DNA of 61,366 nucleotides, the filler included, from Hausera hauseri (taxonomy: Eukaryota): NCBI GenBank assembly GCA_046269625.1. It is 11 parts of 11 records of this genome, joined end to end, with 100 filler letters (N's around TTAATTAATTAA, not from the genome) between each part and the next. Parts side by side here need not be neighbours in the genome. Positions count along the whole stretch, not along the records: positions 51,682 to 57,144 come from JBJURY010249292.1; 10 more parts are not named here. One strand, 5' to 3'. Shown one piece after another: positions 29,382 to 61,366 of the stretch (position 1 is the first letter of the stretch; each line of letters opens with the position of its first letter). The translations under genes and the position numbers were made by a program. Under the pieces are notes generated by a model. It had not been told where the DNA came from. It ran no database searches and saw only the letters and a list, made by a program, of their open reading frames with translations.

Positions 29382-29384
29382 CTT

Positions 29385-30593: not shown

Positions 30594-30596
30594 ATA

Positions 30597-30719: not shown

Positions 30720-30726
30720 AAACAAA

Positions 30727-30844: not shown

Positions 30845-30845
30845 A

Positions 30846-32601: not shown

Positions 32602-32651
<50 letters not shown>

Positions 32652-32684
32652 AAAAAAAAAAACGAAACTCAAAATAAAACTCAC
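30981..32684 (-). CDS. nad5: NADH dehydrogenase subunit 5 (start uncertain: GTG 32684 needs a shift in the A46 run; GTG 32691 is in frame but overlaps trnH)
   Basis: LGWDGLG, NRLGD, SAQFPF.SWLP.AMAAPTPVSSLVHSSTLV, AFSTLSQLG, HAVFKSLLF; incomplete T stop. Confidence 0.93.
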
Positions 32685-32745
32685 TATTCACCCACAAAAG
32701 ATCTACAGCACCACAAGCCAATGTTTTTAAATAAACTAAATGAAT
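32685..32745 (-). tRNA. trnH: mt tRNA-His (GTG)
   Basis: ATTCATT/GGTGAAT acceptor stem, TTGTGG loop; lies between nad4 and nad5. Confidence 0.8.
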
Positions 32746-32749
32746 AAAC

Positions 32750-33820: not shown

Positions 33821-34507
33821 AAAAAAATCCCAGACAGGGCAAATCTAAATGAACTACGAAGGCACAGATGTTTTGGCAATGTCTAAACTTCACAACAATT
33901 ACTGCTGCGTCTGATCACCATGTCAGAGCTGCTCACAGGATGTGTCCCGTCACATGTTTGCAGAGGGGACGCCTCACGGTGAGGAGGCGTTTCAAATCAG
34001 CTTTGGATCCAGTCAGCTTTAAAAGCTGGTTGACAATTTGGGTTTCCTTCCTGAAGAGGTAATAAATTATAGATGCATTGATGCTTGTTCAGCAAATTGA
34101 GGTGTTTGACTTTTAAAATTGTTCTTTAAAAAGCCGTAAATCCCTGATACCAAGGAATCTAAATGATCACTTTAATCAAATCTGTGAGAAACCTCTTATT
34201 TTAGCTGTTTAGGTGAAGATATGGTTTTTAATTTCCCTTTTTGTTTTACAGAAACACTTAAGCCGTTAGTTTCCTGCTTGTTGAAAAGGTGAGTTTATTG
34301 TGGTGAAGTGGTTTCATTGATGCGTATGAACAGTGTAGTGTGACAGTTTTGTGCAGCTTTAAAGAGTCCTGTCTCACACAATTCAAATCTTATCAACTAA
34401 TTTAAAGGTGCACCCTCTACTGGACCCCCCATTCTGATAAAATGATCCTTTATTGTTTAAACTGTGTTTTCATTGCAGGTCCTTCTTGTTCGATCATGGC
34501 TCGCGGC
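33821..34507 (+). other. Nuclear-type spliced sequence: 37-nt exon (34252-34288) and an exon from 34479 with ATG GCT CGC GGC (MARG...)
   Basis: Polypyrimidine ..TTTTACAG|exon|GTGAGT ... TTTTCATTGCAG|; composition unlike mtDNA. Too short to name the gene. Confidence 0.5.
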
Positions 34508-35079
34508 NNNNNNNNNNNNNNNNNNNNNNNNNNNNNNNNNNNNNNNNNNNNTTAATTAATTAANNNNNNNNNNNNNNNNNNNNNNNNNNNNNNNNNNNNN
34601 NNNNNNNAGTGAAACCCAATCTGCCGCAGAAATTCCTTTGTTCACAACCGAAATTTAAACAAATTCTTTCGCGCCAAATTCAAACTTTTGCACCTACCTA
34701 AAAACCATACAGTTCGCGTGCTTGTGTGTATCCACTTTCTGACTGTGTATCTCCTATCTCCGCCCTATTAATCGTGTATGTGTGTATCATTTTTTCTACC
34801 GCATGACTGATCCCGAACCATTTGGTTTCCTTCCTTCCCTGGGGGGGGGGGTATTGGCGCAATGTAGTCACATTTAGCTACTAACCGTAAAAACGACCCA
34901 AACTTTAAGTTTTTTCAAGGCTCACCACAACATAGTCACAGAACTCCAAAGACCAAACAAACAGAAGATCAGGCTACTCTCTCCTCGCATATGCAAAGGT
35001 TTTCAATCAAAATTCAACAAACTTAAAAATCTGGCATCATTCAGAGGTAAAAATCACTTGGGGGCTTACCATTACACGC

Positions 35080-36222
35080 CGTATCAAAGAAAGATGTTTT
35101 CTGGCATACTGTACACTTCCTTACCCAATTCTGCACATCTTTTCACATTGATGACCATGTAACTTGATGTTGGAGGCGAAAGGTAGCTCTGGAGCCTGGG
35201 TTGTGCAACAAATGAACGTTGTGAAATGCTGTTCTTTGCAAAGAAGATGGAAGAATGATTTTCTTGTATCCAGGTTTGGAAGCGTCGAAAGCTACGCCAT
35301 CAATAATTTCATAATATTTAAAGATGGAGACAATACTATTATCTGGTTGAATCTGTCTGAGTAACTCATTATAAAAAACAGGTGCAAAACTTATCGAGTC
35401 AACGATGCGCGACAGAAAATCTGCAACCAGATTACCCAATTCTGATATGTGAGTGATATTAAAGGAGAATGTTAATAGACATGCAATCTGTCTCTCTTGT
35501 TGTGGTGATATTGATTTCGTGTTTAAGATGCGGAGAAACGGTTTGTGATCCGTTTGTATGGTGAAAGTTCGTGATAGCAACAGATGTTTAAAGTGTTTTA
35601 CGGCTAAGACAATTACGATCAAAGGTGACATAGCGTTACTCTGGATCCGCAAATTTGCGTGAAAAAAATTTGTAAAGCACCGCACCGGCTGCTGCTGTTC
35701 AGGCATCGGTGGTGAGGAAAATAACGGCATCTGAATTGGATATGCCAAGTTTTTGACTGTTTTAAGATTAACCTTCAGTGATTCGTAGGAGTTGATTAAA
35801 TAATCAGTCAGGTGAATGAGTTGCTCCTTCTTCCCGGAGCTGAGTGAGGCAAAAGAGAAGTTAATGTCGACCAACGTGGTACATATTCGTGCATGAAATG
35901 AAGAATGCCTAAAAAGATCGCATTTGAGTGGAAGTTTTCGGCAGCCGTATGTTCTTAAATTGCGTGATGCAATCTTGTTGAGGTGAATGGCCAAATTGTG
36001 TAATGATACGGTTAAAAAAGGTAATTTTCTTTTGAAAAAAGGAGCATTTGGTGAAGTTCACTTCAGGATTGTGATATAATCACTGGAAGATTATTCGGAG
36101 ATTCTAAGAGTGTTGTTTTGGAGGATGACGCAATTAAAATGTCATCTATAACGGGAAGGCAAAGTCTAAGCCGGAAAGACCTGTGTCGATGGGACGTTGA
36201 AAGGTCTGTGTTAAATTGCGAT
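35080..36222 (-). mobile_element. pol: Gypsy pol fragment (RT 3' half, RNase H, integrase Zn domain), decayed
   Basis: TQTFQRPID, AVKHFKHLL..TIQTDHKP, NLVADFLSR, HNVHLLHNPG..CQK. Confidence 0.85.
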
Positions 36223-36681
36223 TTTCAGGATTTCTGATTAATTTAGAAATAGTTCGATGTTCCGTTGGGGCGCTTACAATTTTGGAAGTACTTAAGGTAT
36301 TTTCGATGGTGTTCATTGAGGAATTGACTAAATGATTCGATTGGGAAAAGAATGCATCTGTAGAGATAATGTAGGCATAAATAAATCAAATTGATGAACC
36401 AAAGTGTTCTTATCTTCTGACAAGGATTCACAATCTTCTTCCATTTACAAATAAATAATACTGAAATTCAGGAATGAAAAAAAAACAAAGTTAATTGAAA
36501 ATAAAAACTTTGATAGATGAACGTTACAGTGTAGATCAGACAAATACAAAAATAGTGTACATTTAAACGAAAGTCATGATAAACCGCTGAATAATTCACA
36601 ATAGTTACAAATTTTAGAATATTTAAACAAAACAGTTACAGATTTTAACAGTCCATTTTTCCTCCTAATGTGAGTACCACA

Positions 36682-38170
36682 GTCTGCGAGGCACTTTGAA
36701 AACTGAAAGACATATAAACATACTCTAAGTGGCCGAAAGGTGTTATGACAGCCGTCTTCGGTATGTCAGCAGAGAAACTGGGATCTGGTGATATACCTTC
36801 TGTAAGTCTATGCACGAGAATATGGAAGTGCCATGGAGGTTTCAGAGGATGTCATTTATCAAGATGGAGGAGAATAGGTGTCCATTGTCGTTATAGTGTT
36901 TAATTGACGGTAGTCACCGCATGGTCGACGGGCGCCGTTTTTTGGAATTGCATGAAGTGGAAAGGCCCATGATGACTTTAAATGCCGAATAATGCATGGT
37001 TGTTCCAAAGAGTGAAATTCGGTCTGGACCGCTTTTCTGTGCTGTGGTAACAGAGGCCGTGCTCTCTGATGAATGAGTCGTTGAGTAAAAGTGACGATGT
37101 GATGGCAAGTGTTGGAAGATGGTTGATATGTGGGGTCTTTTTGTATTATTCTGGGACAATCAGAAGTAATGAATTCTTGAACGTTAGGCGTTAATTGAGT
37201 GAAGGAAGATGGCGGTGTGACCAGCTGTTCAACTGCAGTACAAACGGTTGGTCGTGTAAATGGAATGTGAGGAACAACTTCAGATCTATCGACATTCAAT
37301 TTGTCTTTTGAAATGAGTGACAGTTGTTTTAAAATTGATTTTATTGTTTGAAGTGGTGATATTGAACTTTTAAAAGTTGAAATCGAAGAAATATTAGAGC
37401 GATCAGTTTTTTGTCAGACGACGATTCCTGCAGTGACCTAGTAGGTTATAGTGTGAAAATAAGTAAATCGGATCCGAGAATTGGATTTTGAACATTGGCA
37501 ATTGTAAAAGTTCGTGAAAAAGGAAGAAAAGATTTTATCAGGATAGAGTTCTGTTGTGCCAATGGTATGTAAAAGTTCACCATTGGCATTAAACAATTGT
37601 TTTGTTATTGAGGAAGATTTTTGTAATGTATAAGAGAGAGGAAGTAGTGAGACTGCAGCTCCCGTGTCAGTGAGAAAGAGAATAGGTGAATTTTTTTGTT
37701 TAAGGGTAGCCTGTGAGTAAAAACAGCAAAGCATGCGTTACGGCTATTAAGTGAGGAGTTTGCGCCTTGACCAGAGGTTGTCGTTAGTTCTACTGGCTTT
37801 GTGAGTTGTTTGAAAGAGTTGTGAAATTGAATTGTGAAGATGAGGTGTAAAACGTGCAGTCTGGTAGACATTTGCGAGCACTGTGGTGAAATTTTTCATG
37901 ATAAATGCAGGTGGCGTCATTTGATGAAAAACCTCGATTATAAAATCTGCAACCTATGTAGCATTTGTTTGCATTGTTTTTAAATGTAGTGTGAAAAAAC
38001 AAATCTGATTACACGCAAGTGAATGGTTGCACGATGAATTATTTGATTTAGCGGGAAATTTTCGGTTCCCAGAACAAGATTGACGCGGTAAAGTGATTTC
38101 ATTAAATTTGTCGGTAACAGCCCTGATTGCTTGACGTAGTGCCACGTTTTCTGCATCTATTGACTGCAAC
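36682..38170 (-). mobile_element. Gypsy gag-protease-RT 5' fragment, decayed
   Basis: CFFH..F.NNANKC and CIYHEKFHHSARKCLPDC Gag knuckles, FLTDTGAAVSLLP, WAFPLH, RPCGDYRQLN, KTAVITPFGH. Confidence 0.87.
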
Positions 38171-39006
38171 TCATTATTAATGTTTCAAACTGTGTTCTGA
38201 TTTTGAGTTGGTGATGTTGAACGTCTGACTGTGAGTAGTAGAAAAATGCCGGTCCTGGTTCACCCCTCCCGCTTTTACATGCAGCCAATCCGAAGTGTGC
38301 TTGATGCGCACACCCGCACGGACCGATACATTCGACGACGTAGATGTCAAAAAACACTGTGCACGGTGCACCCCGGAAGCGGGGAAGTGCACGTAAAAAG
38401 CGGATGTTAGAAGAAAGTGGTGCACGTCGTTGAGTAGCACATGGAATGATGGGGCGCGGAAGGAGCATCGAACGGTGAAGGGCCGAAGTCGATGGGAGTT
38501 AGGGCGGAAGCAGCGGGCTTGGGCAAAAAAGTGAGCCAGGACCGGTATGTGGTTTATGGGGAATTAGAAGACGCCCGTGTGTGTGCACTAATGAAGGCGG
38601 CCGGTGTTGAGTAGCACGGAAAACGAAAGCCCAAGGCGTGGGCTATTCGATACCTGTGTCCGAATGGAAATAACCGCATCAAGAGCGCAGGTGCGAAGAG
38701 AAACATCGAAAACCGGCATAGGGTATATCCTTTGGAAACGGAAAAAATTCGTCCAAATTAAACGTAATCGGGTTCAATCGATCGGTCATCGGTTACTGAT
38801 TACGAATATGTGTATCGCAGAGTTTTTATGCATTGCCATCAACGTACAGAAGAGGAAAAACGAATTTCCTACGTACATGTGAACTTTGAACACGTGAACT
38901 TTTATGCGGTTTTAGACAAATATTTGAGGTAAATATCGATTTCACACACACATACATACGGAAAGACATATATATAAGAGGAAGAAAAGTAAATGTAAGT
39001 AACAAG

Positions 39007-39257
39007 ATGATTGCAACAATAAATTATCGTGGTTATGTACGTGGAACAGTTGAACATTTACAATTCAATCAATGGAAACCGCAACAATGTGTATTGAGAT
39101 TGGACAAATATACTTTGGTTATTTTCAAAAATGGTAAATGTAGAGTGATGGGCTGTAAGGAACCAATAGAGAAATGGAAGATAAATATTGAGAAATATAA
39201 AATTGTAGTCATCATTGAAAGAATTCAGTCAATAACTGTTACATGCAAGTTGGGTCT
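39007..39257 (+). CDS. Highly divergent TATA-binding-protein-like ORF (first core repeat; cut by contig end)
   Basis: TLVIFKNGKCRVMGCK matches TBP tALIFSSGKMVCTGAK; IQSITVTCKLG matches IQNMVGSCDV of repeat 2; TATATAAG at 38971. Confidence 0.6.
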
Positions 39258-39357: not shown

Positions 39358-40075
39358 GAGATCAGATTGTTCCGTTTGGCGAGTGTTTGTGATTGGGTGT
39401 CTGGTATTTTTTTCAGGTGTTGGGAAAAGTTCTTTGGCTCTTGCTGCTGTTTTCAGAAAGTATGTGGCCCCTAGGCCTGATGTGTTTAGATATAATAGGG
39501 CTTTCTCAATAAGGGGATAGGTAGTTTTATCTTCTTTTTTCTTGAGCTTTTGGAAGTCCAGATACTCGAGTACGAGTTGTGTTACATCTTTTCTCATGTT
39601 ATTAGGGTCGCAATTTGGAAAGAAAGGATTTTTGTATTGGCCATAGTTGACAGCATAGTGGAGCACGAATAGACCACTATCCTCGCATTTTTGTTGTAAC
39701 GGGTAGTCACGAAGGAAAGAGATGCCCAAGCGTTCCTTTATTGAGATGTATGAGAAGTGGTATAGTATTTCAGTAAGTTTGGCGGTTATGTCGGTGTGCT
39801 CTTGGGTGGGTTCACTGGTGGCGGGGTCTATTAGGAAGCAGCAGTAGTCAGGGCGTTCAGAGACAGAGTAACCAGTGAGAGGCGCGTACGCGTATGGGCC
39901 ATAGAATAATTTGCCAGTTGGCGAAATAATTAAAGGGAAAAAGTTGGAATAGAGGTCTTTCATCGGACTGCAGCAGTGCTGACGTCGATAGAGGATTCAC
40001 AAACAGGACACCCGGATAATCAGCACGTTTTACCTGGATGTAGAGTTCGATCGTCCAGTCACTTAGTCATGCACT
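39358..40075 (-). pseudogene. Second Ulp1-like domain with catalytic His and Cys substituted
   Basis: *LSDWTIELY, VLFVNP, DYCCFLIDP, PLQQKCEDSGLFVL. Confidence 0.6.
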
Positions 40076-40174
40076 GCTAATATCCAAAGGTTGGGTTGGG
40101 ATATTTATATTGTTAAATTTATGTGATTTTAGAAGGTTGTTAGAGGTAGGGTTTTCCTAACTGAGTTCGTCTCA

Positions 40175-41044
40175 TTAGGTATCACGGCAATGGCGGGTGG
40201 CTGATGTTAGTAGTAGTTGGGTTTTACAGAGTAGGCAATAGAGGGCTGAGTCATGTGGGGTGGAGGTGTGAACTTTCAGTTTTAAGTGTTGAAAGGTTCC
40301 GTGTTGGAATTTGGCGGTGTTAGGTAGGAATGTTGATTGGAAGGAACAACGACTTAGGTTGCATTGTAGTACTAGTTGGTTAGTTGGTGTTTTGATTAGG
40401 AGGAAAGCAGTTTCTGGGGTTGTGGAGAAGTTATTAGAGGTGGAATTTGGAGCTCCCGCTGTATACGAGGGTTTCGCAGGAGTACTTGTTGATGGAGGAG
40501 ATTCTGGAGAGATATTTGTGGAAGTTCGTATAGATTCTACATCCACTTTAAGATATGTGGCATCTGCAGCTAGTTGAAGCATGTAGCCACAGACATAGGG
40601 ATCACAGTCATTAGAGTTTGAGAGAGGTTGGTGGTCTTTATGTTCATATTGATCTCTGAAAGTTAACTCTGGGATGTTGAATACAGTCTTGAAGACATCA
40701 AGGCGTGCATATAATAGTTGGTTGGGGATTTTGGTATATTCGGAGGATTTGAAGGGATCAATTAGATATAGAGAGCTGGTGTTTTTGTTTATATAAACAA
40801 GTAACCAGTGGTGATTATGCCAGAGTAAGATGAATGTGTGAGTAGTTGTGTCTATTAGTTTAGCATCTTCTGTTGATAGGTGAAGGTGTGCGGAGACATC
40901 AGTAGTATTTGGTAAGGCAATTTGGAATAGATTCCATGAGATATATAAGGCTTTATGTCTGAGGAATGTTTGGTAACCCCAATAATCAATTTCATCCGTC
41001 GAGAACCATGTCTCAGGTTTGTATTTTCTCAGTTTGCGTTTCAT
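40175..41044 (-). pseudogene. Ulp1/C48-family cysteine protease domain plus Zn fingers
   Basis: WFSTDEID, NHHWLLV, LIDP, HQ..NSNDC; then CNLSRC..HLKLKVH and CLLC..RHC. Confidence 0.8.
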
Positions 41045-43934
41045 TGAATTGTTGAAATTTTACACATATTATTAAGAGGTGTGTACGGATGGTTGCAAGT
41101 AGTTGTTATTTTTGTAGGTGTGTTTGAGTTTTAAGGATGTCGGAATAACATTTGCTGGAGGAAGAAGTAGAAGAAGAGATAAGGGAAGCAAGTTGTGTAG
41201 GTGAACTGATTTGGTCTACATGAGAAGGAGAATTAGTATTTGGGGGAGTGTGATTTTCACTTGTTGAGACGGTCTCAGTCAAAGAAAACCTAGTTGGTTT
41301 ACTTGTGATTTCAGAATTTTTAGTTTCTATTTGTGGTGTATAATTTTGGGTATTAGGTGGGGATTTCAGGAAGCATTCTCTGGACGTTTGAGTAGTACTA
41401 TCGGTTAATTCTTCAGTACATGTGTTAAATATTTTTGTAATAGTTAGGGTTGATGTAGGTTGAGTAGTTATGGATTGTTGAGTTATAGCAGGAGTTGAGG
41501 GTACGATTAGTGGGTGGTCATAAGTTTGAGTATTGGGTGTGCTTATATTTTGGATTGGTAGTTTATGAGAAATTGCAGAGTTCCCATAAGTAATGATTTT
41601 ATAATTATTTATCAGGTTTATAATTTCTTGTTCTGCTTAGGGTAAGGTTGCTCTTGAGAGGTTAGTTAAGAATGTTATTATTTCAGGTCTGGAGGAGAAC
41701 TTCAGAGTTCAGAACGTAGAAGGAGGAGAGTTGTAGGTCAGGAAAAATTTGCGTAGAAAACCTAAAGAACGGTTTATAAGTTTGGTGTTATCGAAGTTGA
41801 TGTTAGATTTGATTCGTGCGCTATGACCTTTGTAGAAGAAATGTCTTAAGGCTCGGGCGGTGGGGCTATATTATTCGAGTCTTGTGTCGCGAGTTGAGAG
41901 AGCATTTTTGAGGGGCCAGGTGAAAGGAAGATTATTCATAGGTTTTATTTGGTTCTGGTCCAGTGTGGGGATAGTGGATGTAATGATAGTATGTGGGATT
42001 GGTTGGTTAGATTTTTCAGGTATTGGGTATTTTAGTATAATTTTAGTGGGAATTGTTGTGGGTTTAGGTTTGTAGTTATGTAGTAGAAAATCCATATCTG
42101 GAGTGGAGGAGGGGAGGGAAGCACGAGACAGTTTTTCTAGGAATAGTAATATTTTGGCTCGAGAGGTGAAGTGGATCGGTGCGTAAGGTGGGGTTGATTT
42201 GTACCTTTGCACGAAATCGTTGAGGAAGGACGTAGCTTGGGTTTTAAGCTTATCTTTGTATATTACTGAGGGACTGACATTTGGCTTCTGATTTTTGGCG
42301 AAAAAGATTTTCAGAGATCTTACAGTAGAGATGAACTGTTCAAGGATTGGGTCGTGGGTAGTAAGAGCATTTGGTAGAGGCCAAGTAAAAAATGCATGTT
42401 GAGTTTTTTCAGTGTTAAGTTCCATTGCATTGTTGTTGGGTTTAGATGTGTGACGTTTTGTTGTGGTGTCGGTGATATTTCGGATTGTAGGGTTTTCAGA
42501 TAAAATTTCAGAGACATTCATCCGGTTCCATAAGTGGGGGAAGTTGGTAGGGTTTCGCTGAACAATATATTCTTGAGTGGCTTTAAGGAAGTTAAATATT
42601 GTGTGATGAGAGTCAAAGTGGAAGTTGAGATTGGGTGTATCAGTACTAAAGGAAGGAAGTTTTGTCTGAATTGTGACGATACGGGATGTAAGTTTTTTCC
42701 AGAAGATTTGTGGAAGTTGATTGGTGGGAAATGCTATATAGTATGTAGTTTTTTGAAGAGCAGTCTTTGGAGATTGGCAAACAGGATAGAAGCATAATGA
42801 GGTAATTGGTGTTTTAAGTCGTAGGAGTATTCATCGATATCTTCATTCACTATATAGCTTGTTAGTTGTTCCTCTACGGGAAGGTTCGACATTTGGATAG
42901 GGACGCATGTTTTTGGGGGTTGCAATTGTTGTGCAGAAATTTCAGAGTCGCCATATGCGTGTTTATGGTACGATTGTATGTAGGTGAGACTGCTTAGGAT
43001 TCTAGAAGGCAGAAATATTTGGTTGTAGAATTCATCAATAGTTTGTATAGTTCGATTGTGGCAGAAGGTAAATACAAATCGTGCAACTTCATGTGTCTGG
43101 GTAATTGGTAAGGAATCGCACGCGAGTGTAAAGAAGGCTTTTAGGATATGGATGTTGCCAATTGTGGCAGGTTTGACTGTGGAGTGAGTGGTGAAGAATC
43201 TTAGGTGGTTGGGTATTTGGTTGGCATAATATGACAATGTGGTCTTTTTGTCTTTGGTAAGGCTATCTATAAGAAAGAGAATCCAATTGCAGGAGTTATT
43301 TTTAAGGAAAAGAAGAAGGTCTGTTGCCATGCTTATAAGAATAGCGAGGTATTTCTCGCGGTTCTCAGACATCAGAGTGACAGAAGTGCTACTTTCATGT
43401 AGGTCGCAATTTTTGTTTGAAGTAGTAAAGTTAGAGGCGGGAGTGAATTTTATAAATTTCATTTTCGGAATAGAAGCAGGAAGCACCCCATCTGACTGAG
43501 TGTGCTATGACCTAATATGAGCCACAGCGATAGTTGTAGGGTCAGTCTGAACCGCCTTGTCAGAAAGTTTAATAGAAGGTGTTTGGGTTTGTTGGTGTCT
43601 CTTTTTGGAAGAAGTGGATGATTTGATCTGTTTATAAGGTCTTCGGAGACGCTCCCTCGGCGGGACAGGGGCGGTTGTTGCAAAGTCTGCAGTCTATTGG
43701 TGTGTGGCGGTGGAGGGAGTGGAAAAGATGGAGTAAGGGTTGGATATCGTGGAGGGAGAGGCCAGAGGTAAGGAGGAGGAGGGAGATATATCATATAATG
43801 TGTATTTGGGGCTACGGGGCGAGCTGTGCAACTCAGAAATGCCTCCTAACCTCTATGCGTCGGAAACACTGGGAAAAATCCATGGACACAAAATTCACGA
43901 AGTGAATCCTGGTCTGCTACTCTATTGATCATCG

Positions 43935-45728: not shown

Positions 45729-45918
45729 GCAAAAAAAGAAATTAACAGAATTATTTTCAAACATTGATTTTTTGAACAAAACTTTCACTGCACAGATGAA
45801 TCCTTTTTTTTGTCTTAANNNNNNNNNNNNNNNNNNNNNNNNNNNNNNNNNNNNNNNNNNNNTTAATTAATTAANNNNNNNNNNNNNNNNNNNNNNNNNN
45901 NNNNNNNNNNNNNNNNNN

Positions 45919-48900
45919 TTTATTCCAGATACAATCTGTTGGCGTTTAGATCCAGTAACATTTTCTTCAACAAGAAATAATACAAAACTGGCTGGAATCA
46001 TTGATAGAGCAAAATTCAAAAATATAGATAATGATAACTCTAACGTCATTTGGCTCGTTACTTGATTCAATTGATCTTGTTTTGAATATACCAACGGGTG
46101 GTTGGATACGGCAATGCCATAAGTTGATGGGTTATTCCGAGATACGACTCTCGATCTCAGTAGTAAATTATCGAACATATTTGCATATGCGGGCATTGAT
46201 ACGTAACCCTTAGAATTAACCCAGATTCTCGTGTACGTTGTTTTCTTTCCAGACATTCGCAGAAATAATTGAAATGAGTGTAGAAAATTTGACGAATTTT
46301 GAGTATAATTGAAATAGGAATAGAGTGAAGGCCAGAATGATCCATTTACCAACATATTACAGGACTGTCCAAAGGAATCATTCAAGAAAAACTGATAACC
46401 ACCATACAGTTGTTGTTTGTAAAACATGAATTTTTTTATCAAATGATCAGAAATATTGTATCCGGTTAGATTATTTAAAATGTCTGAACTTTCCATTAAA
46501 CGTGAAGACGGTGTTGGTCCACCACTGGTTGGGTCCGAACATTGCTGCGTGCCCGTTTGATTACAATCGCAATCCGGTGTTTGCATTGGTATTGGATTAG
46601 AAGATGGACTTGACCAGAAATTTCTGCTGGCGTCATAACATTTGTAACCAGTTAAATTATAGATAGATGGTGCCATACAGCGAATGCCTGATTGAACAAC
46701 ATCCGACCCGTACGAATCACTCACACTGTCTACAGTAGGATCAGATACGATATCTTTACGATAAAATGTATAGAGATTGCTATATTGATTCCTGGGCATC
46801 ATAAGCCACGGATGGATTGTCATTGAAGGTTGATTCACGAACTTATTAGACGACTGTAGCACTGCAACCATTAATATTATCAAACATACAGGCAATATTA
46901 ATTCAGCCACAAATCCTCGAATATTTCGTTTTGTATAATGAAATCGTTTATATTGTAATGCCGCTATTTGTTGTTTAAATAAAGTGAAGCCACTCAATAA
47001 TTCGCATTCCAAATTAACAATAGGCGATTTTGCGGGGTTGTCTTTTATTATTCGATCTCTATCTCTCAGGCTCAATCTAGAAGCCGGAAGAGGTAAATCT
47101 CCGGAATCTGTCAAAATTCCTAAACCTTCGGAATAATCCGATTTAGTCGGGTCGTCGGCAACTTTCAAAAATACTTCTTCCAATGTTGTATCTGATAACC
47201 CGTACGTTGTCACGTTCAATTCGTTCAATGATTCGTCTAATTGTTTAAATAAATTAGAAAATTCCTTGGTTTCTTGATTCGAAATTGGAAGTATAATCGA
47301 AATTTGAGTCATGGTCTCTTCCACTATTCGAGCATTAGGTACAAAGTTCCTGACAAATTCTAAAACTTTTTCTGTTGACTTTGACGATTTCGATTTGACG
47401 AATTCTTCTTTCGTGTGCATATTCTTTTCCAAAATCAAATAGTATCCTTCTCCGAATTCTCGTTTGAGAAAAACAGACGACCCACAACATTTCAATTTCC
47501 CCTGAGAGATAATGGCAATTCTGTCACTAAGGTAATCTGCCTCATCCATATGATGTGTAGTCAACACGATTGTCCGGTCTGATGTACGAAACTTCATGAG
47601 AAGATCCCAAATTCCTCGGCGAGCAAAGGGATCTACTCCCGCTGTAGGTTCGTCTAGAAATATGACTTTAGATGCGCCAACAAAAGCCATGGCTATGCTT
47701 AATTTTCTTTTCATCCCTCCAGATAGTTTTTTTGAAAGCGAATAAAGTTTCCTTGACAACCCAACGTCTTCTACAATTCTCGGTATTTCTAAAGCAATTT
47801 CGTCGTTTGTCATGCCTTTTAATAAACCGTAAAAATACACATGATCCTCAACAGTGAGCATGTCAAATAAAATGTTATGTTGTGGACAGAGACCAAGAAT
47901 ATTCCGAATGGAGTCCATTTGGTTTCTGATGTCTTTGTGTAGAATAAATGCAGAACCGGATGTTGGTGGATAAATACCAGTGAGAATGGAAATTGTCGTC
48001 GTTTTGCCTGCTCCGTTGTGTCCAAGGAATGCCGTAATTTGTGATTGGTAGAAATTTAGACTTAATTTATCAACAGCAGGCTCTTTGGATTTGGGATAAC
48101 GTTTTGTTAAATTTTTTATTGCTATACCAACATTTAAATTTTCTGGTTCCATTTCTATTTTAAAGAGAGAATCAGTTGATAAGAGAAAATTTTCAGACGA
48201 GGAAATTTCTGAATGATCGCTGTACCCGCACCAATACCATTTAGTGAATAGGAAATGGAACTCCGAATTCACCACGAAAGACAGCCTCAACCTACCACGT
48301 AATGAGTAGGTAAATGACACTATCAGTCCACATCATAACGACACAATGACCAACACCGAAATTTAAGTTAAGGACGGTTATAGAACAAATTGTCGAAATG
48401 CACTCCAGTTGTTGTTTGTTCCAAATTGGCGATCACTAAGAAAGCATTACAAAGAGAAACCTGAGCAGAAAGACCTGATACATAATAAATTGGAGCAGTG
48501 ACGATATCTTGATTACGCATGATGATGGTGTAGAGCAAATAAAGAAGGTAGTAAATGACCCCTCTTGCAACTCCTGCGATGTTGGATCGGTTGAGAAAGA
48601 TACTAAACATAAAATATTGGCAAATAATTGATACAACATAAGAAAACAGTACAATAAAAACAACACTTGGAGAAGAGAATTCAAAGATTTTCATGAATTT
48701 GATGGTGAAAGTCAAGATTATAACGGAAATTGTCGTAACGATGAGAGAAGACACAAACCAGGCAGCCCAGTGGACAAAATTAGACAATCCCATTAACCGT
48801 ATAAATTTCTTTAGTCGTTTTTCTTTCTCGTAGGCAATGTTTTTGATAAGGAACGTGAAAGACATTACCCAGGAAATGACAAGAAATGGAATAAAATTGG

Positions 48901-49560
48901 AAATAACGAGGATAAATTTATCATCGACATAGCATGGATAAGGCATTATTTGGACACTAGAACTAGTTGTAACAGGCGTATTGTTGGATAGAATTTCAAT
49001 GAATGCATGGTCAGTTGCCTGCTACAGATATAGAAATCCACTCATGTAGTATTTCATATCAACGAGCGTGTTTATCCGAGGAATCGGACTGCAATAACGG
49101 TCGAGTACTTTCCCGTTAACTGTCAATACGCGATGTTGGTATGCGAATGGCGTATCTGAGCAATGTCGTATTTTCCACTGACGAGTCAAACAACCGAGCA
49201 GCGAAAGTACCATTGATCGGACTGTCGTTAAATTTATTAATGTCATCAGCGGACTGCAGTGGAATGAATTTATCCAGGACAGTTGAGTTTAACGTCGATT
49301 CAGTCCAATAAAAATGAAAGTGATTTGACGTAATTCAGTAATTTATCTAACGAGAATAAATGCCGCAGTAGAGGACAAATAGTCAATGTGTTATTTTGAT
49401 GAATATTGTCACATAATTTATGAATTATCTCTACAATAGCCTTGCACGGCTGTCTAATTGATCGATTTGACAATCGCCGCTGAATAACAGCAATTCGCAA
49501 TTTTTCCAAAATTGTCAATGGTTCAAATTGAATCGAAATCTGTAAATGTTCGAATTGTCA
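45919..49560 (-). pseudogene. ABCA-subfamily transporter (ABCA1/4/7-like), ECD1 end to TMD2 start; no introns evident; disrupted
   Basis: MPYPCYVDD, YEKEKRLK, GHNGAGKTT, LSGGMKRKLSIA, LDEPTAGVD, TTLEEVFL; stop in ITW*VEAVF, stop at 49022 and frameshifts near 48260-48370. Confidence 0.88.
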
Positions 49561-50639: not shown

Positions 50640-51581
50640 GCTTGTGGTAGGCACTACAATACACCCCGTGGCTGAGTTGAAAACCGTAAAGAAAAGATTG
50701 AAAGAAAATCCCGAGAACAAACAGATAATTTGCTTAATAAGTTTTTGTGCGTACAAGACGTTGTACTCCTTCGTTGTTTAGTTGTATGCGATAGGTACTG
50801 AAAGTAACGGATTTGTGACGTACATTCGCCGTGTTGTCTGACCGCTGGTAGTGTTTGGCAAAAGTGACATTAGCTTTAGTATGATTGGGTGTTGTGTCTG
50901 GAGAAGGCAATACAAAAGGTGGAGAAGAAGTGGTTGTAGATAAGTTATTCCAGTTTTTGGATATGGTTTTGGAAGGTAATAAGTTGAGAGATGAAGTAGA
51001 AATAGACGAAGGTATAAAAATAGGGTGTGGAGCAGAAATAGTGATAGAAGTAGGAGTGTATGGAAATGCCGAGATGGGGGCAGGAATGGAATTGATGGGT
51101 GACAATGTAGGCAAGAAACTGGAGCAGTGGAATGATGTTTGGTAGACTGGGGAATCGAAGTCGGGGTAGAGGTGGTTGCAGGGGTGAGGAATGATGTTGA
51201 TGTTTCGATTGGTGATGTATCGTCAACGTGAAAGGCGGGTTTTAAATTAGTAATATGCACTACAACTTCTTTTCCGTCCTTGAGGATAACAGTGTTGTGT
51301 GAATGCAGTTGCACCAATTTATACGTTTCTAAATATTGTAGCTGGAAACTGCACGGTGTCTGGTTTTTTATCCATACAAACTTTGCCGAGTATAAGTCTT
51401 TGGGTATGTAAGATTTGTCATTATGTAAGAGCCTAAAAAACAAATCTTTCCTGATTGTAACGAAATGATTCTGTGCTGCTCATATCCTCTCGTCTGTAGG
51501 AGCGGTTAGTTCAAACAATGACCGTACAGGGGTTCCGAATAAAGCTTCCGTTGGTGAACATCCTGTGGAAGTGGACGGAGT
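50640..51581 (-). mobile_element. Gypsy integrase 3' end, P/S/T-rich tail, PPT and start of 3' LTR
   Basis: Homologous to 16884-17900 (STGCSP.EALFG, PKDLYSAKFVW, HITNLKP); minus strand GGGGTGTAT then TGTAGTG at about 50658. Confidence 0.82.
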
Positions 51582-52010
51582 NNNNNNNNNNNNNNNNNNN
51601 NNNNNNNNNNNNNNNNNNNNNNNNNTTAATTAATTAANNNNNNNNNNNNNNNNNNNNNNNNNNNNNNNNNNNNNNNNNNNNGACGTCCTTTCTTTTTGAA
51701 CGACAATTTGGGTGTGATGGTATTTTTGGACTGGGATTTCTTTTAGTCTTCTTTAGGGTTAGATCGATATGGCTGGGTAGGGAAGAATCATCATTTACTT
51801 TTATAGGTTCAGTTTTCATATCACTTGAATTGGAAGGCATTTGATTATAAGTACTATCTGATGATGATTTATTTAAAGAGTCTTTGTATCCATGGGCTCT
51901 GCAACTGATATATTTGGTGTTAGAGCCAGAGCTAAGAATTCTTCATTAGTTACGATTATATGTGTAGGAGTGAATATAGATTGTTCGGGTACTTTGATGA
52001 CTGCTTCTGA

Positions 52011-52480
52011 CTAATAATTCTTTGTTGATTGGTATATTTTGAGTATTACCATGGCTTTTTCTTTTGTTCTGTATGGATATTTTGAGCTGTTAAATTTCAT
52101 CAACATTTGCTTAGGAGTCATTCTGTTTTCTGGGTTAATTTCAGATTGATAGAGGAGATCTCTAATGCCTGCTATAGAATAGAGATTAAATAAGGCAATT
52201 GGGAGATATGTGTTAAAAACGTCGATTCCGATTATAATTTTTCCAGCGAGTCTGCCGGATAACAGGTCGTATCATATACTCATCCATTTGGCCGATTATA
52301 TCAGCTTCTCGTAGTCCAGTGATGGTACAATTATAATTATCCACTCGTTCTCGTGGGGAAACGCGTTGATCTAATAAGATTTTTCCATCTAGATCCATTA
52401 TAGTTATATCGATAATGGTTGTTTCTTTTGAACGGATTGGTTTGTTCAGCTAAGCAACGTTAGTAGACAATATGACCATG
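52011..52480 (-). pseudogene. REX4/ISG20-like DEDDh exonuclease fold with catalytic residues substituted (element B)
   Basis: MVILSTNVA..DITIMDLDGKILLDQRVSPRERVDNYNCTITGL..(frameshift)LAGKIIIGIDV..GIRDL..KEKAMVILKIYQ. Confidence 0.72.
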
Positions 52481-53299
52481 TTGTGTTTTTGTATTGTTGA
52501 GAATCTGGAGAAGGACAAACCTTTTTCCAATTCGTTTTTATTTGGCATGGATATCGGGTATATTCGTATCTCATATTCAGGATGAGGAATATTTTCTCAT
52601 CTGATTACCTCGATATGAATTATTGAATGTGGTCCGCCGTTTGTGCGAAGCAATAGAGTGACATTTGTATAAAACTGTTGGTCCAAATGAATAGTTTGAA
52701 ATTTTGGAAGTTCGAGTATATCTGTATATCCCTTGGTATAGGTTCGACACTTAAGTTGGAGGGTTTCATTGACTGTTGATATATAGACATCAGTGGTACG
52801 ATTTGAAAGGTCAATAAGATCAGATAGCTTTCTTGAGGCATTCGGTAGTTTTATAAGTAGGGCACTTCTTTGAGATATGGTATGTCCTTTCAGATTGTTG
52901 GGAATTAGTGATGCATTGGCATAATATCGATAGTCTTTCTGTATTGTCGTATTCAGATTTGTGACGATGTTGAAATAAAAAGATTTGGGTCGTTGGACAA
53001 CCTCGGAACCTTGTTGGACTGAAAATATGAACATCAATAAGAAAAATGTAATTTTTCTGTTTAAGATAATGGAAATAATATATTGGTTGGTCGCAGGGGA
53101 TTTTGCGGTTTTAGTTTTTAAGTAGGTTGTTAGAAATTTTACAACCTTGTTTTTTATGTACGTACATGAATATACGATTACATCATTTAGCGGACGGGTT
53201 TGCCGCTTAGGGTCGGTTGGCTTTTCAGCTGACCGATTTTGTATAGATGGGCACATTTGTTGATTATTATTGTCAGATATTTCGATCTGGCGTTCAGTA

Positions 53300-54545
53300 A
53301 AGGGCGCGTCTATGGGATCTATTTGGGAATCTTCCCTTAAAAGTTTTAACTGGTTCAATATTTCTCTTGTCCTGCGAGATCGCCGTCTTATCTTAGAATA
53401 ACAAATTATTAATGGCACTAGTATGGCCAATAATACCATAAATATACATAAAGCAACTATTATCCAGAAATACTTATCTGAGTTATTTTTATAATTTTGC
53501 GTTGTTATTATTCATACAATTTTCGTAGTTATCGCAGATATTTGTTTTAGTGTTTTTTCCAACCGGTATATTGTTTGTAAGATCTGTCCCTCTTCATTCA
53601 ATTCTGTTATAATGACTTTATAATTAGTATCAGCTTTAAAAAGTATACAGGCCGATATGGGTTCTTCTGGTGTAATGATTCCTTCACTAATCATTCTGTT
53701 ATAAAGAGAACATTCAAATTTCACATTGGTGTTTCGTAGGTTTGATACAGTAATGATAAGAGAATCTGATGTCGGCTGTATGGTTATATCTAAATCTTTT
53801 ACAATTTTAGATTGAATTTGAAATGGTGAACTGGTTATTATACTTTGTACTGGCCGTGAGGTAGATAATAATGGTTTTGTTGGAGTTGTTATCATTATTG
53901 ATTGAGATTTCTCTATTATTTCTGGTCCGTCTGACCACTTTGACCATGTGTAACCGTTAATAGTTGTTCGGTAAATTATTTGATACAATCTATCAAATGG
54001 AAAGGGACAACAAAAATATGGTTTTTGGTAATCTATTCTACAATTTTTTATAATATCGGTTTCATTTTTGATATAATATTCTACAGTATAATGTCTAGTT
54101 ATTGGGACTTCTGTTTCAGCTGTTGCACATGGTCCATTTCTCATGATTTTAGTATAAAATGAGACAAGAAAATATGGCTGATTGTAATAATAAATCATGT
54201 TAGGGTATGATAAATACGTTCTGTATGTCTGACCTCTTCTTCCCATAGCATATTGAATCCTATAGGATACTCCAAACATAAGTCCACAATAAGTGTGAGT
54301 TGAGTGGCCATAATACAGATCACAATATTCTGGTGTTGCTTTATACAGAGAAGGTACTTTGGATATAAATGTGTATATATTCACCGTACGTTAAATATCG
54401 ATTGGCCATAATTTTTACACATGGGTATCGTCCAACTTGGACAGCTTTATATTGTACAGTGGTATCTTCGGTAGGATCTTGAGCCGATATACAAGTTACT
54501 AAGTTTAACATTATAAACGTTACCATTAATAATAAGTTAGGGTTT
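53300..54545 (-). pseudogene. Type I membrane protein with FN3-like ectodomain and WSKWS motif in the env position (element B)
   Basis: Signal LLLMVTFIMLNLVTCISA-QD in the integrase frame; Cys modules; GYTWSKWSDGP; stalk; FKADTNYKV; TM FWIIVALCIFMVLLAILVPLIICY followed by KIRRRSRR; one frameshift and one stop. Confidence 0.78.
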
Positions 54546-54559
54546 CCGGTTCTTATCTT

Positions 54560-57144
54560 TGATTCTGTTGGTGCAAGCTTGCACCTGTTTACATGGACTT
54601 TTATGGGGTCAATTTTGTTTCGTTTACTTTTATTTAAGTAGATGTTAGTTTCATCTACTTTTTGAATCATATATGGGCCCTTATATGGCCTGTCCAATTA
54701 TGGAGTTTTTCCTTTCTTGCTCAAGGGCATATGTAACATAACCTTGTCTCCAGGCTTAAAATTAGGGGATTTAGCCTTTTCATCGTAACTTTCTTTGTAT
54801 TCTTTTTGGTACATTTTTATGTGTCGTGAAGCCAGATTCCATACATATCCCAGTTTTTCCTCTAACAGCTCCTGATATTCTATATCTTTTAAATGTGAAA
54901 CTGGTGTCTTAAAATCCAGGTCTATTGGCATATGTGCATCCCTCAGATACATTAAATAAAATGGAGTTTCTTTAGATGCAGAATGAATTGTATTTCTGAT
55001 GGCAAATAAGCAGGGCTTAATGTATTCGTCCCAATTATCCTGTCGTTCATTAACCATTGTTGCTAACTTGTTGATTAGAGTTCCATTAAATCGCTCTACT
55101 GTCCCGTTAGTTTGGGTATGGTATGGGGTGGTTTTCAACTGTAATATTCGGAATATTTTCGGTATTTCCGCCATTACTTTTCCTGTGAAATTTGGAGCTT
55201 GGTCCGTTAACAGTTTAGTAGGTGCTCCGTAGTTAAAAACAATTTCTTCTACAAAATAGTTTGAGCTTTTTGATCAGGTATTGAAATCACCACTGACCAT
55301 CTGGAAAATAAATCAACAAATACTAACATATATTTATTTCCATTCATTGTCATTGGCAATGGTCCTAAAATATCCATTGCTGAAAATTCCATAGGAGCGG
55401 GTGGGTATTCCAATGGTTTCAAAGGAACTTCAAATTTTGAGCCGGTATTTCTTCGTGTTTTACAAATTGGACAACTCTTGCTCCATTCTTCTACATCCTT
55501 TAACATGTTATGCCAATAATACTTTCTTCTTAATCTACCTAACGTTCGTTTTACTGATTGATCTCCTCCCATCATACCGTCATGGTACTGTGTCAGTAGT
55601 AATTTTGTCTTGTTGTGGGACAACTACAACCAATTTTTCTTTATAATTATAATATAATATATCATCTTTTATTTCGTAGTTTTCAGCGAACTTTATCAAA
55701 TGAGTATGAAGATTGGTATCTTTTGGTACTATTCATTTTTGAATATATTCTTTAATTTGTTTTATTTGTTCGTCATTTTGTTGTTTCTGCAATAGCGATT
55801 TTTCCTGTTCCGTAATACTCCTGATAGCTGCTATAACACCTGGTTTGTCTTCTATCTCTTCTTTCTGATCAGTATCTTCGGGTATCCTTGACATATAGTC
55901 AGCATTTGCATTAGCTTTACCAGTTTTATACTCGAACTTTAAGTCGTAGGGTTGTAATAACATGGTCCATTTTATTAAACGACTATTTGGAATTTTATGA
56001 TTCTTTAACCATTGTAATGGTCTATGGTCAGTATAAATAACAGTTGGTTTAGTTTCTGATAAGTACTGGCCATATTGTTCTAATGCATACACAATTGCGA
56101 GTAGTTCTGTTTTAATTGTCGAATAATTCCTCTCATGTTTTCTCAATTTTCTTCTTCCGAACGATATTGGATGCTCTTGTCCTTTATCGTGCTTTTGTGA
56201 TAAAACAACCCCAATGCCCACTTTACTCGCATCCGTAGCTAAGAAATAACGTTTGGACATATCTGGATAGGCTAGTATTGGTGGAGTCAATAAATTATCC
56301 TTTAATTGTTGATATGCCATTTGGCATTCTGTAGTCCAGACAAGCTTTGAATTTTCTTGTAACAGTGAGTGTAATGGAGAGGCTACCTGTTGGAAGTCCT
56401 TAACGAATTTTCGATAATAACCTGTAAGACCGAGAAATTTTCGGACTCCTCTGACTGTTTTAGAAACTGGGAAATTTTGAATTTTGTTTATTTTGCCTAT
56501 TTGAGGACTAATGCCTTCTCTACTCACCGTATGACCTAGAAAATCTACTTTGGTCCGTGCAAAGCAACACTTCTTAAGACTTATTTTTATTCCAAGTAAT
56601 GCACATCTTTCTGGTATATCCTTAAGGTGTTCTTTATGTTGCTTATAATCAACTGAAGCGATTATAACATCATCTACGTAGCACATTATATGGGGAGCAT
56701 CCATTGTAATTATATCAATGGCTGTTTGGCACGTAGCTGGAGAATTAAATTCGTAGCGTCTGCAGTTACGAAAGCGGTCTTCTGTTTATCTTCTTCCTGC
56801 ACTTCTATTTGCCAGAATTCTTTCTGTAAATCTAACGTAGTAAATAACATTTTATCTTTTAACTTGTCCAATAACTCATCGATTCTGGGTAAGGGATAAG
56901 TATTATCTATTGTTACTTTATTTAAAGTACAATAGTCCACACACATTCTGATCGATCCATCTTTTTTGTACCATTACAATGGGAGCTGCCCATGGCAAAT
57001 TACTTGGTCTAATTATATCATATTGTCTCATTTCAGCTATTATTTCTTTAGCTTTTTCTCTTTTATAATAATTGAGTCTATATGGCCTTTTTTAATAGGA
57101 GTCTCCATTCCAGGTTTTAATTTGATCTCATGTTTGATAACGGG
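54560..57144 (-). pseudogene. pol: Gypsy pol (RT-RNase H-integrase-GPY)
   Basis: ORFs 56710-56946, 55733-56704, 55249-55623, 54698-55174 and 54341-54697. Confidence 0.92.
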
Positions 57145-57929: not shown

Positions 57930-60105
57930 TCAAAACCGCCGTTTCAGTCTAAACTGCCGAATCGCCCGATCGGAAGATGGAGAATCCTGATTCTGCGGCA
58001 TCATCAATGCCGAATTAATATTCGCTGTTGGCGAAGATGTCACGTTGAAATCTTGTGAATTCCTGCCAACGTTTGATGTTGTTCCAATAATTTCAGCTGC
58101 ATATTTTGTCTCACTGTCATCAACTGGTTTTTGACTGCTGGCAGCTTCACTATCTGAACTACTGCTGATTATGACCGGTTCTTCTTCTTCATATTCTTCC
58201 TCTTCATCAACATCATAGTCACCATCATCATCATCATTATTATGAGATTCTTGATCATCATCAAGTGAAATGACAACATCCTGGACATTTTCCATTTCAA
58301 AATTTGGATTATCGTCCATGGCATGAGCAACCTCAGTGTGACTACAATCATCCGACAATTCTATCCCATGACCATATTGACTTTCAATGCTTATCTGTGG
58401 ATCTCCGGCACTAACTAGTTCATTCTGATTGCCAACAGGTTCTTCATCATGAGACTGTATTTGAGTTTCAGTAATTGGTTCTGGACAATACACCTCTTCA
58501 TCATAATCTTCCTCATCGTTACCAACGTCAAATTGTTCATATACTTGATCGTTCTTTTCATCAACTTCTTGGTCATTGACATTTCCATCAAAATCCAATT
58601 GGTTTATGCAATTTTCTTCGTGATTATCATTCATTTCTGTTTCCTTTGCAACGTCATTCATTTGCGAACTTTGTTCAAAAAATATATTTTCTTCGGCTAT
58701 GCTTTCTGGATTTTCATTTTCTCGTGGCCTTTCATTCAACTCTGGTTCCGAAGTCTCCACAATTTTATTCTTCACTTCTTCGCTTTCCAAATTTTCATTT
58801 TCCATTACAACAATGTCTTTAATTGGCATATTACTGAAAATATCTTTGTCACCAACATCCATTTGTAAATCTTCAATTGGTGTATTTGGTGGTGTCAAAT
58901 TTCCACCTGTCTCATCTGTAATATCTTCACCCATATGATCATCATAAGACAGGGTTTGATGCATGATAATTTGTTCTTCAGTCGATTCCTTTGTGTTTTG
59001 CTCTAATGATTCTGCAGATTGGCCATCTTTAATTTCCTGTAAAATTGGACCGGGGTTACTTAAACTGTAGCCATCTGTTATTTCAACACTAGCTTCTGGT
59101 GTCTCGATATCGAAATCTTTCATCGATTGGCCATTTTCAAATTCCTCAATTACATCATGGGATTGGTGATATTTCATTTCATATGCAACAGAGTTTGGAT
59201 TATCTTCCACCATGCCTACACTGGCTTCTGATGTAGCTATATTGAAATCTTCTGGCGATTTAATATCATCACATATTTCATATACTTCCTCGGATGGATA
59301 ATTTTCCAAATCATTATCCATGGTTTGGGAATCTTTAGATTCTTCTTCTTCCACTTCCGGTGACTTGTTATTTTCATTAGCAATGTTTAAATTATCCGAG
59401 TGTATAGCATTTTCAACTTCCTTAACAATTTGATCATCATCCAAAACGTCACTTTCAACTAAACACTCTTCTGATTGAGTGTCACGTTTTAATCTTTTAG
59501 TTTGGGGTTCATCAATACTAACTTGATCGGTAGTTCTCTTTTTGGCTTTGTCATCATTATTTTTCAAAGTCTGAAGTTCATCTTGAGTTCTTTGCAAGAA
59601 AATCTGAGTCAATTGCAATCGCTTTGACATTTCCACTTCATTATTTTTCAGGTTGTCACATGCTTGCTTTAATTCAACTATTTCTCTGGTCTTCTCCTCA
59701 ATTTCTTGCTCAATATTTCTGGAAATAGACAAAATGTCATCTTTTTCCTTCAGTGATGATGCGTGTTCTTCACCTAAAACCTTATATTTACTCTCAAGTT
59801 CGGCTAGTTCACGTTTTTTGTTTTCCGATTCACTTCGATATTTACGAGCTATTTCTTTTAATTGTAATAAAATATCGTCTTTTTCCTTCAATTTCGTTTT
59901 TTCGTCATTGATCTGCTTTAGCAATTCACTTGTCTCGATTTTCAATGACTCAAAAGAATGCTTCGATTGCTCCGAAGCTTCTTCTAATTGGTATACTTTT
60001 TTCCTTAACTTCTCTCGTTCATTGCAAACTAATCGATATTGCTCCGGATCCGTTTGTTCGACCCGTTCCATCAATTTGGAAAATCTACTAATCTCTTCCT
60101 TAATT
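57930..60105 (-). CDS. Nucleoprotein TPR/Megator-like C-terminal portion (coiled coil plus acidic disordered tail), 5'-truncated
   Basis: Open 714-aa frame; TDPEQYRLV.NE and QLKEIARKYR resemble TPR DTEEYRKLLSEK and QVKKIGRRYK; long D/E-rich tail. Confidence 0.6.
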
Positions 60106-61366
60106 GTTTTTAATCGTCAATTTTTCAAATCTTTACTTACCGAAATCCAATATTTACCAAAACGCGTTTCTGCTAAAATACAACGTTACATTACTTTTGT
60201 CGTTGCTTTTCAGTTCCATAAATGCATTCGAATTTATGTAAATATGCGCATGTGTCACCAAATAACTTTTCCACTTTGATCGTTTTTGTCAACCATTCAC
60301 GGGCCTTTGATTTATAACCAAATAACCAAAATGTTTTGAACGTTACCAGTAACACATGTTCGCTATGTTCGCACTTCATTAAAGCATCTTTAGTACGGAT
60401 TCTCCGATTGTTTTTTGTTGATAAATTGTTTCTGCCCACAGCAAACCGGAATTTGGTTAATGTTTTAATGCCATCAACAATAAACTTTGTGCTTGATCAT
60501 AACAATTTGCACGGATTTCTAATCGGATTGATGATAACCACAATTCGGCATTTTAGATATTTTTCGCTTTGGCTTTTTCTAATGTGTTTCGTGCTCTTGA
60601 CAATTTCTGTTGTTTTTCTTCTATTTCTGATTGCAATATCCACGGTTGAATGTTGTTTTGGATTTTTTATCGATCCTCTTTTATAAATTTCCAATGATTT
60701 ATTGGCCTTCATATTATTGTCGTCGTCATGACTATTACCATTTTCTTGTTGCTGTTGCTGCTGCCCTTCATAAAGCTGACCGAGCATCATCCACAATTTC
60801 GCATAAATCGGAAATTGTTCAACACCCTCAATCAATAATTTCTCTGCCGATTCCAAATCACCCAAACACCATTCCAATTTCGCCGATTTCATCCATACCC
60901 GTGCATTACCGACGTTTATTAGGGTTTTCTGCATCAGTTGCCGGGCACGATCAAATTCATTATTTTCCAACTCTAATTTTACTGCCGCCAACATGATTTC
61001 CTCCGAATTCGAATTGGCTAAAAATGCACGACTCAGAATATTTCGTGCACCTTCAATATCATCGGATTCCAATTTCGATTTGGCATACATTAGCCATAAA
61101 ACTTCTATTGTCTGACAACGTTTTACTGCAAGGTCCAATCTTTCCCCAGAACTTTCACGATTTCCATGGGATTTTTCAAATGGTTTTGCATGTTTTAACA
61201 TGCCTTTCCGATTTGGTAATTGTATCATAGCAACGGAATAAATGGCGCGTACGCATTCATAGCAACCGTGTTCTTCATAATTTTCCGCATCGTTAATCCA
61301 CGCATACTTCTTGTCTGGTTCGTCAACATCAATTCCAATAATCCGTTGGATAATTTTCAATGCCGT
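60106..61366 (-). pseudogene. PRPF6: Pre-mRNA processing factor 6 (U5-102K) C-terminal half, disrupted
   Basis: IGIDVDE.DKK..W..DAE, EVLWLMYAK, NSEEIMLAAVKLE.ENNEFDRAR, KLWMMLGQ, KAREWL, RCILAETRFGKYW.SVSKD; deletions, frameshifts and stops. Confidence 0.9.

Follow-up and report, generated by a model that had tools for sequence, protein, structure and literature searches.

What use could a retrotransposon have for an exonuclease fold in which every catalytic residue has been replaced? The question is raised by an exonuclease-like domain at positions 52014-52491, on the minus strand, of the window analyzed here, by which we mean the whole stretch of 61,366 nucleotides (1-61366). The window is made of eleven contigs of 4 to 10 kb each, set apart by 100-base N spacers that carry TTAATTAATTAA in mid-spacer, and contigs that adjoin in it are not linked to their neighbors. 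The domain lies in contig 51682-57144, where it is part of the final accessory gene in a decayed copy of a Ty3/Gypsy element. Gene order in this contig runs from pol through a segment with a signal peptide, an ectodomain, and a transmembrane helix to a two-domain protein, with the following parts.

54701-57144, minus strand: decayed Ty3/Gypsy pol with reverse transcriptase (RT), RNase H, and integrase; the contig end falls inside pol.
54479-54535, minus strand: signal-peptide-like stretch, in frame after integrase, a layout also found in P0002 to P0005 and L004.
53515-54390, minus strand: beta-rich ectodomain with Cys residues, for which fibronectin type III scored 0.87-0.88, under the line of 0.9, and is no more than a lead.
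53404-53463, minus strand: transmembrane helix, with a mean hydropathy of 3.3 in 19 residues, of the membrane protein linked to pol.
53019-53079, minus strand: T-rich stretch ending in TTTTCAG, a candidate splice acceptor for the accessory gene; hydrophobic if read in frame.
52600-52998, minus strand: cupin-like double-stranded beta-helix domain with an IPNNLK motif, in frame before the exonuclease-like domain; fold predicted from the P0021 model.
52255-52491, minus strand: N-terminal half of the ISG20/REXO-like DEDDh domain, with S-x-N at ExoI (52467, 52461).
52014-52250, minus strand: C-terminal half of the same domain, with T (52211), Y (52073), and K (52058).
51682-52013, minus strand: probable end portion of the accessory gene, up to the contig end at 51682.

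The order RT-RNase H-integrase, together with a Gypsy-type pol, places the element in the Ty3/Gypsy class; the ectodomain at 53515-54390 has no Pfam match. The accessory gene is interrupted in this copy. Its cupin-like region, of about 135 residues, has a single stop at 52597-52599, and the exonuclease-like domain is broken by one stop (52450-52452) and by one frame break near 52252. A further stop, at 52011-52013, sits where all four full-length relatives continue. The N-terminal half of the domain is neutral (11 K/R and 11 D/E), and the C-terminal half has 11 K/R to 5 D/E.

Contig 9440-14260, which we call element A, has the same parts in the same order.

10521-14259, minus strand: pol, signal-like stretch, ectodomain, and transmembrane helix of element A.
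10089-10286, minus strand: start of the element A cupin-like domain, with IPNNLK (z 4.4, 0 of 300 shuffles; E 0.035).
9445-9753, minus strand: element A exonuclease-like domain, with A-x-N at ExoI and I at the ExoII position (9528); E 4.6e-4.

The contig ends before ExoIII of this domain is reached.

Is the domain related to active exonucleases at all? A reading made from the sequence alone had placed it on a REX4/ISG20 scaffold, and the motifs on which this was based are indeed present on the minus strand of 52014-52491. With the domain read through with X, a PDB search gave SDN1, ISG20, and ISG20L2 as the top three of six matches (E 0.07-0.13); PDB held nothing for the C-terminal half alone or the element A domain alone, and Pfam nothing for either half of the window copy or for the exonuclease-like domain of element A. 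Word-based protein searches were blank as well (0 of 70 candidates for the exonuclease-like domain, 0 of 2270 for the two-domain stretch), and locus scans of metagenome and viral contigs returned no relative of the accessory gene and none of P0003. When the IPNNLK region and the first half of the exonuclease-like domain were used as query in a full HMMER search of 1.84 billion proteins, five relatives were found at E up to 0.001 (P0021 to P0025). Four of these have both domains and a long tail, with P0021 the closest relative of the accessory protein, and P0025 is a 160-residue piece. P0023 matches Pfam RNase_T (PF00929) over 164 of 164 positions at E 8e-8; P0021, P0022, P0024, and P0025 have no Pfam family at E 0.1.

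A profile of the nine-row alignment A3 matched four sequences in total at E 0.1, namely ISG20L2 (E 4e-17, spanning positions 206-371), ISG20 (1e-10), SDN1 (2e-7), and a PolC exonuclease (0.005). A profile built from the five database relatives alone was run on 66 frames of the window. It recovered the N-terminal half together with the front domain at E 1.5e-28 and, at E 5.6e-6, the C-terminal half, which had been absent from the HMMER query; the exonuclease-like domain and IPNNLK region of element A were found at E 4.6e-4 and 0.035, respectively. Judged from these profiles, the resemblance of 52014-52491 to the REXO/ISG20 exonucleases is not chance.

Structure prediction for P0021 gave a model of medium confidence (mean pLDDT 53, pTM 0.33), whose alignment included live relatives, that is, those with catalytic residues, which can bias it toward a DEDDh fold. 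In Foldseek, ISG20L2 ranked first for this model. Against 48,161 chains, ISG20 was first (Z 12.7, rmsd 3.7, 146 aligned), with DnaQ at Z 10.3 and Pan2 at Z 10.1, and the RNase H-like five-stranded core is predicted to be present. The window copy (52255-53013), folded from its single sequence, reached a pLDDT of 30. Because the profile matches and the P0021 model matches agree on the ISG20/REXO group, we consider the fold assignment sound; the DEDDh/RNase T-like fold proposed earlier is thus borne out by both kinds of search.

The model also predicts a double-stranded beta-helix for the front domain, with matches to HP0902 (Z 10.7, rmsd 2.3, 98 aligned), many cupins at Z 9-10, the CENP-C cupin at Z 8.7, and ALKBH7 at Z 8.6. 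The viral list for the model was led and filled by proteins with AlkB or cupin domains. We therefore predict a cupin-like fold, whose source would be a cupin or an AlkB-like protein; leads to F5/8 type C and H-type lectin domains scored below the line, at 0.83-0.87, and gave way to the cupin match. The invariant columns of the domain are Y, I, P, N, K, R, and E. Conserved His/Asp metal ligands were not found, and since no His is common to the alignment rows, the front domain is likely not a metal enzyme.

In PMC6123492, SDN1 activity is reported to need Asp144, Glu146, Asp228, His278, and Asp283, any single change abolishing it; the equivalent ISG20 positions in our alignments are 11, 13, 94, 149, and 154. 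All five are replaced in the window copy, by S (52467), N (52461), T (52211), Y (52073), and K (52058), leaving neither the Asp-x-Glu of ExoI, nor the Asp of ExoII, nor the His-x4-Asp of ExoIII that mark an active DEDDh enzyme. No Asp or Glu occurs, in any register, in the 22 residues holding ExoI. The sequence-only reading had correctly seen S-x-N at ExoI and K at the ExoIII Asp. It also listed a VGH motif reading IGI, but that His is not among the five catalytic residues, and the acid position of ExoII is in fact the T. Its N-x-G for ExoI of element A was two residues out of register; the true reading is A-x-N (9747, 9741), the same pattern as in the window copy and P0021.

The relatives include both live and dead forms. 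P0023 and P0024 retain D-x-E, E, H, and D, a Glu standing in place of the ExoII Asp. In P0025, D-x-E is retained and ExoII has G; the sequence ends before ExoIII is reached. P0021 reads A-x-N and T, with neither His nor Asp at ExoIII, and P0022 reads A-x-S and F, without the His. Pairwise, the dead members are about 20-35% identical, and in an unrooted tree of seven rows, in which element A is a long branch, a branch with support 86/88 (not starred) sets the four dead members apart from the others. A single old loss of catalysis in the family is allowed by this tree; the corrected A-x-N strengthens the idea, because three sequences only 22-35% identical have small-x-Asn at ExoI. Around the lost residues, the pocket scaffold P-R, G, D, L, G, G is identical in seven of seven covering rows, live and dead. 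The Arg of P-R is kept across live and dead relatives and is not in ISG20 or ISG20L2.

Is the dead state, then, an accident of one decaying copy? Data on other copies came from one public run that contains the stretch, possibly the source sample; 86 contigs of this run were placed on 52030-52490 at a likeness of at least 80%, and differences were counted at a 30% share, which 38 single-site differences reached. The difference at the frame break (52252) and the one in the stop codon were dropped before the selection count, and sites were classed singly. Of the remaining 36 differences, 25 are silent and 11 replacing, against an expectation of 22-29% silent in the absence of selection; for this one run, pN/pS is 0.12-0.18 (p at most 4e-7). 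Of 37 sites, 26 fall at third codon positions and 1 at a second. Purifying selection acts on the exonuclease-like domain, and the excess of silent differences implies that it was conserved while the family spread.

None of the five codons aligned with catalytic residues shows a listed difference among the 86 contigs of this run, although differences may go unlisted at the ExoI Ser codon, which is near the end of the compared stretch. The stop at 52450-52452 and the break near 52252, on the other hand, differ from the other copies. P0021 and P0022 have unbroken reading frames that carry equivalent losses. Because the five codons lack differences and these unbroken relatives share the losses, the dead state is shared across the family and not peculiar to one copy. 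The sequence-only reading had looked to other copies for DEDDh residues that would overturn it, and none came to light in the 86 contigs of that run. Its view of an ancient loss followed by retention agrees with losses common to copies and relatives and with purifying selection, but a single loss is no more than allowed. Taken as a whole, what it said of fold, loss, and retention has held; what it overlooked is the cupin-like domain and the existence of relatives with catalytic residues.

We think the chances are about even that the dead cupin-plus-DEDDh accessory protein, kept by selection, binds RNA 3′ ends without cutting them and so shields element RNA. One can envision that an active ISG20-like exonuclease was captured by a Ty3/Gypsy element and that one old loss of catalysis came after the capture. 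Holding an RNA 3′ end uncut would be the simplest use of a pocket without metal ligands, and ends held in this way might be shielded, whether in element RNA or in reverse-transcription intermediates, from host 3′-5′ exonucleases and small-RNA trimming. The cupin domain could act in dimer formation or as a scaffold. We imagine that the protein would be made separately inside the cell, probably via a spliced RNA. Maelstrom and EXD1 are dead DEDD folds that bind RNA (PMC5408684, PMC7968707), and TREX1 is reported to restrict L1 without catalysis (PMC10123124). A bolder version is possible but to us doubtful: an invertebrate Ty3/Gypsy lineage would have turned a captured ISG20-like enzyme into a cupin-pseudonuclease of its own with which it suppresses the host's surveillance of RNA 3′ ends. 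If it were true, the natural live forms (P0023, P0024) and dead forms (the window element, element A, P0021, P0022) would let the switch from cutting to shielding be tested.

Export of the protein would call for a different explanation. The stretch at 53019-53079 might be a second signal peptide, and the cupin and dead exonuclease domains might be carried outside in an envelope-like glycoprotein for which catalysis is dispensable. In the window copy, no stop separates the transmembrane helix from the cupin domain, P0021 also begins with a hydrophobic stretch, and 52600-53013 holds six sequons among 11 Asn (shuffle p 0.003, for one of 15 regions tested, picked after looking). In element A, however, a stop follows about 45 codons past the transmembrane helix and the corresponding region is free of sequons, and the pol relatives end shortly after their own helix. 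Relatives of the accessory protein have one to four sequons, with just two in the first 400 residues of P0021, and P0022 to P0024 lack the hydrophobic start. The stretch itself is T-rich with a TTTTCAG end, as in introns; among 45 YAG sites, the one at 53019 ranks second by pyrimidine content and first by T count, and element A has no comparable splice acceptor. We consider a surface protein quite improbable. Given the stop in element A, the ends of the relatives, the scarcity of sequons, and the T-rich TTTTCAG stretch, it seems likely that a separate intracellular protein is made from a spliced RNA.

Inside the cell, the dead fold might also do without RNA, pairing with or replacing a host REXO-type exonuclease or its partners and damping RNA surveillance as a protein-level decoy or scaffold. 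Purifying selection and the kept fold fit this equally well, and a cupin domain without conserved metal ligands, which matches the CENP-C cupin, is most simply an interaction module. Yet the dead members have drifted far for mimics of a single host protein (20-35% identity), and the family-specific Arg is kept in both live and dead members; we regard a decoy as unlikely. We give still less weight to a switched active site, in which DEDDh has been lost and other residues cut nucleic acid or handle another substrate, with the Asn at the ExoI Glu position as part of the new site. That Asn is found in three of the four dead members, at 22-35% identity, and Maelstrom, with its fold lacking DEDD, is described as an endoribonuclease in PMC7968707. 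P0022, however, has Ser at this position, the dead members have no common His, Cys, or acidic residue at pocket positions, and alignment A3 shows no ECHC-type zinc motif. That the whole is a neutral relic, an active exonuclease gene that decayed in the window copy or a set of misaligned residues, might be thought from the stops and frame break and from the weak single-sequence evidence, with no Pfam match for either half and elements A and B not alike in pairwise comparison (z 0.9). We consider it very improbable and already largely refuted, by the five codons without listed differences in other copies, the strong silent excess, the intact frames of P0021 and P0022 with their equivalent losses, and an ExoI stretch free of Asp and Glu whatever the register.

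How does such a pseudonuclease compare with known systems? The sequence data indicate that the window domain, which a Gypsy element encodes in one protein with a cupin-like domain, belongs to the ISG20/REXO group and is a pseudonuclease throughout the family. Best among the profile and fold matches of the accessory family are the REXO/REX4-type DEDDh exoribonucleases (ISG20L2, ISG20, SDN1), from which the window protein differs in being without the five catalytic residues, in following a cupin-like domain, and in being encoded by a retrotransposon. The bdelloid Vesta/Juno LTR retrotransposons and Athena/Terminon elements carry a DEDDy-type ORF3, according to PMC5408684 and PMC6431247. There, as in the window element, a DEDD-superfamily exonuclease was captured as a third gene after pol, and the DEED motif variant occurs both in the bdelloid ORF3 and in P0023 and P0024. 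The bdelloid protein, as described there, is RNase D-like DEDDy with its catalytic residues intact and no transmembrane or coiled-coil partner, whereas the window family has a DEDDh/ISG20 source, a cupin-like fusion, a membrane-protein gene in between, and one dead branch. Membership in the bdelloid DEDDy ORF3 group is not what we find: the matches are DEDDh, the live relatives have the ExoIII His, and the window copy is dead. The bdelloid case is cited in PMC6338049.

Maelstrom and EXD1 resemble the window domain as DEDD folds without DEDD residues that selection has kept; according to PMC5408684 and PMC7968707, they are host genes of piRNA pathways from another branch of the fold, Maelstrom having its ECHC zinc motif, and neither appears among the four profile matches or the 50 fold matches listed. 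DEDDh nucleases occur in P and piggyBac transposons, as stated in PMC3627910, and these are like the window element in carrying a DEDDh domain as mobile-element cargo, except that theirs are DNA transposons. The literature covered, which lies outside Repbase reports and most subscription journals, describes no ISG20-type, dead, or cupin-fused exonuclease in a Gypsy element. Capture of an exonuclease by an LTR element is known; a protein that joins a cupin to an ISG20-type domain and has both live and dead branches we have not found in print. The role of captured exonucleases in retrotransposons is a question that comes from the bdelloid work, where catalysis was assumed. That an exonuclease of the antiviral ISG20 group has been kept after loss of catalysis implies a second use for the fold, and the live and dead relatives offer a natural pair for assays. 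It is worth adding that the five relatives, among them the live P0023 and P0024, are known as protein sequences alone.

In an RT tree of 19 rows, the element of 51682-57144 forms one branch with L004, P0003, and P0005 (95/91), and element A is unplaced. The Gypsy relatives P0002 to P0005 and L004 are 46-48% identical to the window element in integrase or RT, and in them too the integrase leads in frame into a signal peptide, an ectodomain, and a transmembrane helix; the profile of their ectodomains has no detectable match to the ectodomain of the window element. L004:1-4655, a Gypsy element of the same lineage, is filed in a bacterial metagenome-assembled genome and is most likely animal DNA wrongly binned. 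Among the pol relatives, P0005 has two aspartic protease motifs, P0007 has protease motifs after integrase, and P0008 has ankyrin repeats after its integrase tail. For P0007 and for P0027, which belongs to the cluster of P0024, the longest ENA contig is 8375 bases in each case; perhaps, and this is a hint only, the two are one element with pol plus a live cupin-exonuclease gene.

Other contigs of the window hold further mobile elements and sequence of other kinds. Two more decayed Gypsy pol copies, at 14361-19817 and 34608-39257, are more distant, and the accessory profile has no match in them; a Gypsy fragment at 51177-51566 is 73% like 17458-17858. The decayed element at 4191-9339, presumably of BEL/Pao type from its gag, protease, and RT motifs, has more coding-like sequence upstream, at 7436-8727. 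Positions 415-3968 and 19929-23627 are 77% identical over 3.5 kb. Among the minus-strand frames of 39358-43845, possibly another mobile element, one at 40175-41059 is Ulp1/C48 peptidase-like (E 7e-4, just under the cut-off). The transporter gene at 45867-49021, which we take from its motifs to be of ABCA type, has long unbroken frames (821 codons) and is unusually intron-poor for an animal. A 728-codon frame at 57930-60116, coiled-coil and then acidic, has no Pfam match and in our estimation resembles the nucleoporin TPR. The mitochondrial fragment at 24624-34507, which makes an arthropod, or an animal that lives with one, the likely host, is in the invertebrate code, starts with a 20-base tandem repeat and carries, in order, nad2, cox1 (COX1 identity confirmed), cox2, atp6, cox3, and nad3, followed by nad5 and nad4 on the opposite strand, an order that we take to be of arthropod type.
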